From sequence record PZ386947.1: 64,000 bases of DNA, one strand, 5' to 3'. This DNA comes from a phage. The position numbers were made by a program, and so were the translations under genes. A model generated the notes under the pieces. That model ran no database searches. It was not told the DNA's origin and worked only from the letters and a program-made list of their open reading frames with translations. Below are positions 42,524 through 45,003 of this stretch, one piece after another. Each line of letters opens with the position of its first letter. The first letter of the stretch is position 1.

Positions 42524-42997
42524 TTATTTGATTTGTTTAGCAGACCAAATGCGATCTTTAATAATTTTTTGGATGTCTTCAACATACTCAAGAGAGTGAG
42601 CATGTGGATTATCTTTGAAACTATAAGCACGAGCTAGTTTTTGGCCTTCAGTTTTGATTACTAAAAGCTCTTTAAGGATAGCTTCATATTTGGAGATAAT
42701 TCCTTTAACAATATTTTTTTCTTGTGCAGCTTTAGGATCTGCTTTAGGAGCAGGTTTACCCGAAGCCTTTGCAAAAGCAGCGCCAGTAGCAACTAAACTT
42801 TTCCAGGCCATACTAACTGCATTTCCCGTAAATCCTTCCGCTTTCATGTCGCGTGCGAACTGGAATCGCGATTCATCAGAAGCATCTTTATAAGAATATT
42901 TACCCGCTGCAATGGCTGCTTTTGCGACAGCTTGAATTTCGGTGCTAGATGCTTCATTTAACACCGCTTCATTTAAAAATTGAGTATATGATTTCAT
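42524..42997 (-). CDS. internal-protein-like basic protein with capsid targeting sequence
   Basis: 157 aa; N-terminus MKSYTQFLNEA resembles the T4 IP capsid-targeting sequence MKTYQEFIAEA with an L-x-E prohead protease site; Ala/Lys-rich. Confidence 0.6.
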   Translation of the reverse strand: MKSYTQFLNEAVLNEASSTEIQAVAKAAIAAGKYSYKDASDESRFQFARDMKAEGFTGNAVSMAWKSLVATGAAFAKASGKPAPKADPKAAQEKNIVKGIISKYEAILKELLVIKTEGQKLARAYSFKDNPHAHSLEYVEDIQKIIKDRIWSAKQIK

Positions 42998-43044
42998 CTT
43001 ATTTCCTGTTTTAATTCGTGGTTTTAATATACTTATTTATACTA

Positions 43045-43070
43045 AAAAGCCCCAACCTTTCGGTCGGGGC
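43045..43070 (-). terminator. rho-independent terminator (copy 2)
   Basis: Same hairpin AAAAGCCCCAACCTTTCGGTCGGGGCTAAG; minus-strand U-tract follows. Confidence 0.6.
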
Positions 43071-43122
43071 TAAGCCTTGCGGCAACCTTGTCGGGGTTCC
43101 ACCTGCTAAGGCAAGTGTTTGT

Positions 43123-43213
43123 ACGAAACGCCGGGATTCGAACCCGGTTATTAAGCAGTTGACGCTACTCAATATTTTTAAAAGGCCATATCTCGACCAT
43201 ATCCGAACGTTCC
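43123..43213 (-). ncRNA. candidate structured small RNA / tRNA remnant
   Basis: GC-rich non-coding stretch with a perfect tRNA-like T-arm (CCGGG-ATTCGAA-CCCGG, plus coords 43131-43147) but no foldable anticodon arm. Confidence 0.3.
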
Positions 43214-43380
43214 GTCAAAAACGCTACTCGGCTTACGGCAAAGATATTTCCTCGAATCGATAATTCGGTGCGCCGTTTCTGCTGTGATGTAAGAGGGCAT
43301 CAATAAACGCAAAGATTATTAACGCAATTCCTTACTCAGGGAACATCAGTCCGACGACTTACCGGTAGCGACCCGGTTTC

Positions 43381-43731
43381 TTAATATTCTTTTAAAGCAT
43401 CAATCTGTTTACGGCGTTCACGCCATAAATCAATTGCTTCATACGCGGATTCAACATTTCGAATTGGACGGCATTTATATAAAGATTTGTGATTTTGATA
43501 TTGCGTAGATAACGGAATTTTATCTAAAAGGTCTTTACGTTCAAAGTATTCGTAACCATCTAAGCCAAATGAACGATTTTTGAGAAATTGCCAATGACCA
43601 AATTCGTTTTGAATATAAATATAATCCGCATGTTGATAAAGTAAATTAATTTCACGAAATGAGATATGTTTTTCATATTCATTGAAGTAAAATGTTAAAT
43701 CATGAACTACTAAATAAACATTACCTTTCAT
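43381..43731 (-). CDS. hypothetical protein
   Basis: 116 aa ORF between the small-RNA region and tRNA-Arg. Confidence 0.5.
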   Translation of the reverse strand: MKGNVYLVVHDLTFYFNEYEKHISFREINLLYQHADYIYIQNEFGHWQFLKNRSFGLDGYEYFERKDLLDKIPLSTQYQNHKSLYKCRPIRNVESAYEAIDLWRERRKQIDALKEY

Positions 43732-43749: not shown

Positions 43750-43825
43750 TGGTCGAGGCAGTAGGGATCGAACCTACGACCTAGGACTTAGAAGGTCCTT
43801 GCTCTTCCTTCTGAGCTATGCCCCG
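43750..43825 (-). tRNA. tRNA-Arg (anticodon UCU)
   Basis: Hand-folded: acceptor CGGGGCA/TGCCTCG, T-arm CCTAC-GATCGAA-GTAGG (plus view), anticodon loop CTTCTAA, encoded CCA. Confidence 0.85.
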
Positions 43826-43829
43826 TAAT

Positions 43830-43919
43830 TGGGGTGACCGATGGGAGTCGAACCACCCGAGTCGCAATGACAATGGATTTACAGTCCACACCGCTACCTC
43901 TACGGGATAACTCCCCTTA
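43830..43919 (-). ncRNA. tRNA-like RNA with Tyr-type anticodon loop (possible pseudo-tRNA or stable RNA)
   Basis: Sits between tRNA-Arg and tRNA-Ile with CCA-like end; good anticodon stem-loop GUGGA-CUGUAAA-UCCAU but T-stem and acceptor stem do not pair canonically. Confidence 0.35.
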
Positions 43920-43929
43920 ATTCTTAATT

Positions 43930-44004
43930 TGGTGGCCCTGGGTGGAATTGAACCACCATCTGGCGATTATGAGTCGCTTGCTTGAACCTTCCAGCTACAG
44001 GGCC
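43930..44004 (-). tRNA. tRNA-Ile (anticodon CAU, Ile2-type; Met not excluded)
   Basis: Acceptor GGCCCTG, T-arm GGTGG-TTCAATT-CCACC, anticodon loop CTCATAA, encoded CCA. Confidence 0.8.
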
Positions 44005-44005
44005 T

Positions 44006-44081
44006 TGGTGCTGATTGACGGAATCGAACCGCCGACCTTCTCATTACAAGTGAGTTGCTCTACCTACTGAGCTAAATCAGC
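44006..44081 (-). tRNA. tRNA-Thr (anticodon UGU)
   Basis: Acceptor GCTGATT, T-arm GGCGG-TTCGATT-CCGTC, anticodon loop CTTGTAA, encoded CCA. Confidence 0.85.
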
Positions 44082-44086
44082 AAAAC

Positions 44087-44176
44087 TGGCGGAGGCGATA
44101 GGATTTGAACCTATGAGTCGCCGGAGCGACTGCCGGTTTTCAAGACCGGTGCATTAAACCACTCTGCCACGCCTCC
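44087..44176 (-). tRNA. tRNA-Ser (anticodon UGA), class II
   Basis: Sequence GGAGGCGTGGCAGAGTGG...CCGGTCTTGAAAACCGG... with long variable arm; matches T4 tRNA-Ser as I recall it. Confidence 0.9.
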
Positions 44177-44182
44177 AAATAT

Positions 44183-44833
44183 TTATATATTGTTAATTTG
44201 ATTTAGAATTCTTTTTGCTTGAGTATGACTTACGCCAATATGCTTAGCATATTTAGACAATTCGCCACGTTTAGAAAAATCATATAATTTAGAAATTTCT
44301 ATTCTTCTTTTTCTTTCATCCGCAGAAACTTTTGCTTCGTTTGCTTTTGCTATTTTACGTTTAGCTTCTTGAGAATGAGTTTTACCAGCAAAGCCATTCT
44401 TCATTAATCCATTTGAAGACCATCCTTTTAATTTTCCGTTAGAATGTGCCTTTTTAACACCCAATGAAATTAATTCGCGTTGCTGATCTGTCATAGGATA
44501 ATTATTTATATGATCCCATCCACCTTCACCTCCAAGTTTTAAATTATACACATCTGGTCTATTTAAAAACTCTTCTGTGACAATATTTTTCTCGGCTTCA
44601 AGCATAGATTCTTTATCGTCAAAATACTCTAATATTTCTTTAGAAAAATTTTCTATACCATATTTATCTTGGGCTCTTTTTAATAATTTACCAGAACCCA
44701 TATATCCATCATCTAAATTTTCGGTAGAATGCACACCAATATAAATTTTATTATTAATTTTATTTGTTATTTTATAAAGATAAAAATGCATATCAGTCCC
44801 TAATAAAGAACTGAGCGTCTCACGACGAGTCAT
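44183..44833 (-). CDS. segB: GIY-YIG homing endonuclease (SegB-like)
   Basis: 216 aa; GIY-YIG motif FYLYKITNKINNKIYIGVH; C-terminal DNA-binding region; sits inside the tRNA cluster as T4 segB does. Confidence 0.85.
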   Translation of the reverse strand: MTRRETLSSLLGTDMHFYLYKITNKINNKIYIGVHSTENLDDGYMGSGKLLKRAQDKYGIENFSKEILEYFDDKESMLEAEKNIVTEEFLNRPDVYNLKLGGEGGWDHINNYPMTDQQRELISLGVKKAHSNGKLKGWSSNGLMKNGFAGKTHSQEAKRKIAKANEAKVSADERKRRIEISKLYDFSKRGELSKYAKHIGVSHTQAKRILNQINNI

Positions 44834-44837
44834 AAAT

Positions 44838-44911
<74 letters not shown>

Positions 44912-44916
44912 AAATT

Positions 44917-45003
44917 TGGTGCGAGAAGTGGGACTCGAACCCACAAGGAAATCATTCCGCAGCATTTTAAGTGCTGTGCCTTTACCAATTTGACCATTCT
45001 CGC
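44917..45003 (-). tRNA. tRNA-Leu (anticodon UAA), class II
   Basis: Acceptor GCGAGAA, long variable arm, anticodon loop CTTAAAA, T-arm GTGGG-TTCGAGT-CCCAC, encoded CCA. Confidence 0.88.

Follow-up and report, generated by a model that had tools for sequence, protein, structure and literature searches.

The bacterial Y RNA-like RNAs (YrlA) and the viral tRNA-like structures, such as the TYMV 3' TLS, do not decode but imitate a portion of a tRNA, and tRNA enzymes recognise them; the 3' external transcribed spacer of the Escherichia coli glyW-cysT-leuZ transcript is an sRNA sponge. T4 deletion mutants that lack the tRNA region can still grow on laboratory hosts, which implies that any function of the small RNAs rnaC and rnaD is conditional. 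Both RNAs have been annotated in T4 for decades, and the locus described below is a rediscovery rather than a new element. RNA-seq assigned T4 RNAC and RNAD to the late RNAs, and a Northern blot confirmed that RNAC accumulates as a stable RNA of about 140 nt (PMC9697503); their biological role is given as unknown in three reports (PMC3014915, PMC9697503, PMC12685909). In a T4-like phage evolved on a single E. coli strain, every line acquired a convergent SNP in rnaD (PMC12685909). Precursors of tmRNA, another RNA with a tRNA-like domain, are processed by RNase P (PMC11143913), according to a paper whose references also include work on TYMV and RNase P.

The stretch of phage DNA analysed here (the window; 64,000 nucleotides, record PZ386947.1) contains at positions 43071-43380 a segment that, judged by sequence identity, is essentially certain to be the known rnaD-rnaC locus of a Tequatrovirus, that is, of a T4-like phage. 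Window positions 43000-43400 are 100% identical to Aplg8, whose annotation, in window coordinates, places a terminator at 43039-43070, rnaC ("small stable RNA; species 1 RNA") at 43122-43260 and rnaD ("species 2 RNA") at 43267-43385, both RNAs on the minus strand. By blastn, 807 of 50,697 phage records match the segment, nearly all of them Tequatrovirus and 679 with at least 80% query coverage. Rather than a single element, the segment holds three modules, rnaC, rnaD and a 3' trailer, together with an intrinsic terminator, which are listed here in the order of transcription with the spacer between the two RNAs.

43267-43385, minus strand: rnaD (species 2 RNA), 119 nt by the T4 and Aplg8 annotation
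43261-43266, minus strand: spacer between rnaD and rnaC, 6 nt (GAAUUA), coordinates transferred from the Aplg8 and T4 annotations
43122-43260, minus strand: rnaC (species 1 RNA), 139 nt by annotation, predicted to form a tRNA-like four-way junction
43072-43121, minus strand: 3' trailer, with a core of about 34 nt, AACACUUGCCUUAGCAGGUGGAACCCCGACAAGG, at 43119-43086
43040-43071, minus strand: intrinsic terminator, a 10-bp stem (43071-43048) with a GAAA loop and a U-run, annotated in Aplg8

The T4 record annotates tRNA-Arg, rnaD and rnaC in the order found in the window, and agreement in strand, order, position after tRNA-Arg and terminator identifies the two as the same locus. The window rnaC is identical to that of Aplg8 at 139 of 139 nt and to that of T4 at 137 of 139 (98.6%); one of the two substitutions is unpaired and the other turns a U.G pair into U-A. 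For rnaD the corresponding values are 100% against Aplg8 and 99.1% over 116 nt against T4, and the Northern probe used for T4 RNAC (PMC9697503) matches the 5' 58 nt of the window rnaC. The T4 spacer reads AAAUUA, giving rnaD there an encoded ...CACCA. The loci differ in that tRNA-Arg and rnaD are separated by 1 nt in T4 and by a 116-aa ORF in the window, and in that the gene downstream is not the same. The six tRNA genes of the window fall within 43750-45003, minus strand, and rnaC follows downstream on the same strand.

Several features of this segment had been noticed in a first-pass annotation made from the letters of the window, and most were borne out. Its description as GC-rich agrees with a G+C content of 47.4% against a window mean of 34.6%; over 310-bp windows the standard deviation is 3.7%, and a G+C content this high occurs in just 0.36% of them. 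The statement that it holds no credible ORF stands as well, in that three mechanical ORFs (44-81 aa, with TTG or GTG starts) are present and none is conserved in homologues. The terminator that had been proposed to bound the segment downstream was found on the minus strand, its stem (43071-43048) running into TTTTT. Its central observation, a textbook tRNA T-arm on the minus strand, was correct (CCGGG-TTCGAAT-CCCGG, 43147-43131). When every 5-bp stem with a TTCRANN loop was listed across the 64 kb, the list comprised the six tRNA genes, this site and five A+T-rich chance hairpins. The further claim that the T-arm is isolated did not survive, as an acceptor-like stem and an adjoining hairpin flank it and complete a closed four-way junction, the elements of which are as follows.

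43253-43259, minus strand: acceptor-like stem, 5' strand, CGAUUCG, pairing with 43130-43124
43183-43252, minus strand: arm 1, a long irregular hairpin at the position of a D-arm, with apical loop UUGACG at 43218-43213
43175-43182, minus strand: linker, UUUAAAAA, A-rich and single-stranded, unpaired in all homologues
43149-43174, minus strand: arm 2, a 10-bp hairpin with a 6-nt loop, CGUCAA, at 43164-43159, ending 1 nt upstream of the T-arm
43131-43147, minus strand: T-arm, CCGGG-UUCGAAU-CCCGG, found in the motif listing and the feature first noticed
43124-43130, minus strand: acceptor-like stem, 3' strand, CGUUUCG, with no base between it and the T-stem, as in tRNA
43123, minus strand: discriminator-like U, invariant

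Folding of this strand, which had been suggested at first pass, gave for rnaC a minimum free energy of -50.2 kcal/mol (z = -4.55), and the predicted fold is the closed four-way junction; homologues from Karamvirus and Kanagawavirus show the same architecture when folded on their own. In the structure as modelled, rnaC has two non-tRNA arms in place of the D and anticodon arms, and its acceptor-like stem is predicted to stack on the T-arm. The acceptor-like stem has 7 bp, including two central U.U mismatches that are invariant. The three bases that follow the discriminator read ACA in most lineages and CCA in Marfavirus. The T-loop sequence is not kept throughout, being UGCAUGC in Kanagawavirus of the Q7622 type and UGCAUC in Winklervirus, and its loss in these two lineages implies that canonical T-loop recognition is not essential everywhere.

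The structure of rnaC is maintained by compensatory substitutions in at least nine genera. Homologues were gathered by blastn with divergent homologues as queries and by pattern scans, and 28 distinct sequences, from Tequatrovirus, Gaprivervirus VR7, Karamvirus, Kanagawavirus, Winklervirus, Moonvirus, Gelderlandvirus, Kagamiyamavirus and Marfavirus, were aligned with MAFFT. From this alignment RNAalifold recovered the four-way junction, with compensatory change in 24 of 38 pairs. In a direct count that included the candidate kissing helix described below, 98.3% of cells pair and both sides change in 25 of 43 pairs, against 37-50% of cells pairing after a displacement of the 3' partners by 1-3 columns; no shuffle among 500 reached any of the observed measures. 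Within the tRNA-like half, 18 sequences have G-C and 10 have A-U at acceptor pair 3:70, and at the middle pair of the T-stem 15 have U-A and 11 have G-C. Arm 2 shows compensatory change at eight of its nine counted stem pairs, beneath a loop that is invariant save in Marfavirus. Arm 1 exists in two sequence versions that can hardly be aligned with each other, although its helices, a 3-4-nt bulge on the 5' side and the apical loop are common to both. An rnaC covariance model detected no second copy in the window and no copy at all in Dhakavirus or Gaprivervirus TH54 and VR26, its sole weak extra matches being tRNA genes. Looser pattern scans of viral and metagenome contigs for divergent copies returned T4-like contigs and chance matches in G+C-rich coding DNA, with no new loop variants.

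These substitutions bear directly on two older readings of the segment, since compensatory covariation in rnaC excludes both a decaying pseudogene and a coding region. The first-pass annotation had left the choice between a structured sRNA and a tRNA pseudogene or captured host tRNA fragment. The former is upheld by the annotated rnaC and rnaD and by folds with covariation support; the latter falls, there being no tRNA call, no match in the E. coli genomes searched and compensatory changes where decay would be expected. A pseudogene might have been suspected from a canonical T-arm that adjoins a tRNA cluster, and from a sub-threshold tRNA-Sec alignment of 16.6 bits. However, the comparison with host tRNA genes that had been proposed as a check gave no blastn match in 5,426 complete E. 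coli genomes, none of 185,579 bacterial and archaeal species genomes contains the rnaC pattern, and the whole 139 nt, not the T-arm alone, are conserved with compensatory changes in at least nine genera, so that this origin is effectively refuted by covariation and, for the segment as a whole, extremely improbable. Equally remote is the view that the segment consists of small protein-coding genes, as the "hypothetical protein" entries of many GenBank records would have it. The mechanical ORFs of 44-81 aa do extend over the segment and CDS calls are present in many phage records, but the starts are TTG or GTG, every frame is interrupted by stop codons in some homologue, homologue lengths (141-145 nt) differ by non-multiples of three, and the substitutions are stem-compensatory rather than codon-periodic. 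A conserved small ORF, or no conservation at all, had been named as the outcomes that would overturn a structured RNA; no frame is open across the homologues, and conservation itself extends over about 800 phage records. Most of the phage records carry a "hypothetical protein" CDS across rnaC or rnaD, and few carry an ncRNA annotation; these CDS calls are probably spurious.

The two non-tRNA arms of rnaC share a further feature. The arm 1 loop UUGACG (43218-43213) is exactly complementary to the arm 2 loop CGUCAA (43164-43159), and both loops are invariant outside Marfavirus while the stems beneath them vary freely. In Marfavirus, where the loops are UUGGCG and CGCCAA, both sides have changed and none of the six pairs is lost; this covariation amounts to one compensatory event in one lineage. 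On the strength of these loop sequences, a kissing interaction between arms 1 and 2 appears somewhat more probable than its absence. The two 6-nt loops would pair either within one molecule or between two, and the non-tRNA half of the RNA would then be locked into a compact body.

None of the classes of tRNA-like RNA compared here accommodates rnaC. ARAGORN calls neither a tRNA nor a tmRNA in the segment, and the tRNA family RF00005 has no match there at E<=10. The Rfam scan advised at first pass yielded no family at its gathering score, either over 4 kb or over the 371-bp segment; within 43030-43400 the best scores against Rfam 15 were 13.5-16.6 bits, compared with gathering scores of 47-68. 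The best alignment in the segment was to tRNA-Sec (16.6 bits, gathering score 47), over the T-arm and the 3' strand of the acceptor. The isrK, anti-hemB and tRNA-Sec alignments that appeared in the Rfam scans were set aside as weak, chance or partial.

With tRNA (RF00005, clan CL00001) rnaC shares a 7-bp acceptor-like stem, a 5-bp T-stem, a 7-nt UUCGAAU loop, a single discriminator-like base and a position in a tRNA array; it differs in its 70-nt and 10-bp arms, in its junction linkers and in the two U.U mismatches of the acceptor. As it has no D-arm, anticodon arm or anticodon, and neither ARAGORN nor Rfam calls it, assignment to tRNA was rejected, and the lack of an anticodon implies that it would not decode. 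The tRNA-like domain of tmRNA offers a parallel in one respect, an acceptor/T-arm minihelix that serves as a handle on a larger non-decoding RNA, whereas rnaC is without a tag reading frame, the G3.U70 pair and the tmRNA pseudoknots. It was likewise rejected as a tmRNA, with no ARAGORN call, a 3:70 pair that is A-U or G-C, and no match to a tmRNA family in 43030-43400. YrlA and the TYMV TLS show no sequence match or Rfam covariance-model match to rnaC, which further differs from them in being closed by its acceptor stem with two extra arms inside.

The genomic setting of rnaC is that of a tRNA gene. In Karamvirus and Gelderlandvirus it is flanked by tRNA-Trp and tRNA-Gly, and in Kagamiyamavirus by tRNA-Phe and tRNA-Trp, and in Kanagawavirus and Moonvirus it immediately follows tRNA-Met; in the slots between tRNAs the flanking spacers are 5-12 nt long and tRNA-like. 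An acceptor/T-arm minihelix of the geometry that RNase P may recognise is present and covaries, and the annotated 5' end of rnaC, U43260, lies 1 base upstream of the cut predicted from the 7-bp acceptor stem. A model of tRNA-type processing is likely for rnaC, in which rnaC and rnaD would be co-transcribed within a polycistronic tRNA transcript ending at the terminator (43071-43040), and rnaC would be freed as a tRNA is, by an RNase P cut at the 5' end of the acceptor/T-arm minihelix followed by 3' trimming. CCA may then be added to its 3' end, the tail being CCA-encoded in Marfavirus. Against fully canonical tRNA handling weigh the 1-nt offset at the 5' end, the invariant U.U mismatches and the loss of the T-loop in two lineages.

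A perfect T4 late-promoter motif, TATAAATA, is present at 44180-44187 on the minus strand, 4 nt upstream of tRNA-Ser. Late transcripts starting from it could run through tRNA-Arg, the 116-aa ORF, rnaD and rnaC to the terminator. Such transcripts would fit the "late RNA" class reported for T4 (PMC9697503), but the predicted start lies inside tRNA-Ser. The same motif recurs at 43041-43034 (minus strand) immediately after the terminator, where it serves the next gene.

The second annotated RNA, rnaD, has a hairpin on its 5' side (ACCGG-GUCGCUA-CCGGU) and two cores, a 5' one that is near-invariant, AAGUCGUCGGACUGAUGUUCCCUG, and a 3' one that is conserved, AUCACAGCAGAAACGGCGCACC, as well as a central hairpin that varies. 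In alignment the near-invariant 5' part extends over 45 nt, and the central hairpin occurs in several versions. RNAalifold places a G-C to C-G swap in the closing stem GUCGUCG/CGGCGC in 4 of 17 aligned sequences, and the same alignment holds further compensatory changes in the inner stem. Homologous cores were found in Dhakavirus, Gaprivervirus, Marfavirus, Moonvirus, Kanagawavirus and Karamvirus. The 3' end of rnaD (...GCGC-A-CC) was considered as a tRNA-like CCA and rejected, since it is not conserved outside the T4-like genera, and for this reason no tRNA-likeness is claimed for rnaD. The core of the 3' trailer is invariant save for one variable base and one indel among Tequatrovirus, Dhakavirus and Gaprivervirus, even where rnaC is missing, and the 86-nt stretch that combines trailer and terminator (43123-43038) folds into hairpins with z = -4.27.

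Comparison of loci shows that rnaC, rnaD and the trailer are independent modules. In Dhakavirus MX01 and CLB_P2 (locus positions 1497-1708), rnaD is joined directly to the trailer and rnaC is missing to the base; this clean absence marks rnaC as a unit that can be inserted or deleted, like a tRNA gene. Conversely, blastn with the window rnaD found no T4-type copy adjoining rnaC in the Kanagawavirus and Karamvirus loci examined, where a divergent rnaD-like core stands upstream of rnaC, at a distance of at least several hundred bases. Under the model adopted here, rnaD and the trailer would be separately constrained RNAs.

It is possible to regard all three modules as by-products, that is, as structured spacers of a tRNA operon whose role is confined to cis, guiding or protecting the processing of the precursor. 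They are indeed embedded in or appended to tRNA clusters, decades of annotation have brought no known function, and an antisense search of the window found no target above chance. Nevertheless, rnaC is a discrete and precisely bounded module that stands beside different tRNAs in different genera, and it is more conserved than its surroundings, with blastn matches ending at its borders. The invariance of loops and single-stranded cores, while the stems covary, argues for specific recognition. The mature RNAs accumulate (PMC9697503), and the SNP in rnaD that converged in all lines evolved on one host (PMC12685909) is likewise difficult to reconcile with a passive spacer. Overall, a role restricted to cis is unlikely.

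Less likely still is a base-pairing regulator, in which the rnaD core, the linker or loops of rnaC, or the terminator-bearing trailer would act in trans as an sRNA or sponge on host or phage mRNAs, with the leuZ 3' spacer as the model. The long, invariant and single-stranded-looking cores of rnaD and the trailer favour such a role, as does the end of the trailer in a terminator hairpin and U-run, the usual Hfq-binding module. On the other hand, the longest complementarities within the 64-kb window are 12-13 nt and A+T-rich, none of them above chance, and rnaC is almost wholly base-paired. In its arrangement the trailer core with its terminator hairpin, which is not known to carry an annotation, resembles a 3'-end-derived sRNA or the 3' external transcribed spacer of a tRNA. 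Like the leuZ 3' spacer, the stretch 43121-43040 is the terminator-bearing 3' end of a polycistronic tRNA transcript; a sponge function for it, drawn from that analogy, would be pure conjecture.

Taken as a whole, the segment is very probably best explained as the rnaD-rnaC pair, forming the distal part of a tRNA cluster, with tRNA-like release and with a tRNA mimic among its products. In this scheme rnaC would most probably be a stable tRNA mimic that engages a tRNA-binding factor of host or phage. A more elaborate form of the proposal is offered tentatively and with considerable doubt: that rnaC is a dedicated tRNA mimic, carried as a mobile, tRNA-gene-like module across Tevenvirinae and Marfavirus, whose acceptor/T-arm half recruits tRNA enzymes or tRNA-targeting host factors and whose other half is locked by the kissing loops, the whole serving as a decoy or adaptor in phage-host tRNA conflict (for example against anticodon nucleases or other tRNA-directed defences), with the rnaD core and the trailer as two further trans-acting RNAs. 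For a locus present in about 800 sequenced phage records, the covarying tRNA-like junction, the candidate kissing loop, the three conserved modules and their genus-dependent presence provide handles on the function of rnaC and rnaD.

The neighbourhood of the locus has further features of note. The tRNA gene set and its order differ among the window, T4 and Aplg8. At 43843-43914 (minus strand) there is a sub-threshold tRNA (Rfam 22.7 bits, gathering score 29) on which ARAGORN is silent; its 5' part carries a Tyr-like anticodon loop (CUGUAAA), its 3' part is the 3' end of the tRNA-His of Aplg8, and its acceptor strands are mismatched. The window is about 240 bp shorter than Aplg8 at this point. 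A deletion between tRNA genes appears to have left this sequence behind as a chimeric Tyr/His remnant, which would be the real tRNA pseudogene of the region. Between tRNA-Ser and tRNA-Gly, an ORF at 44183-44833 (minus strand) encodes a SegB-like GIY-YIG homing endonuclease (phrog_314, E = 1.5e-55); in T4, segB lies between tRNA-Ile and tRNA-Arg. The 116-aa ORF between tRNA-Arg and rnaD (43381-43731, minus strand; phrog_3355), whose stop codon overlaps the annotated 5' end of rnaD, is found also beside tRNA-Met in Karamvirus VIPECLOM01, and phrog_3355 appears to be a recurrent passenger of tRNA regions. Downstream of the locus, the block that combines terminator and late promoter, AGCCCCGACCGAAAGGTTGGGGCTTTTTAGTATAAATA, is duplicated, with copies at 43074-43034 and 42519-42484 (minus strand) that agree at 97% over 36 nt. 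The two copies bracket a 157-aa ORF (42524-42997; phrog_2280) at a place where T4 has other genes, and this ORF looks like a gene cassette inserted between the duplicated regulatory blocks.
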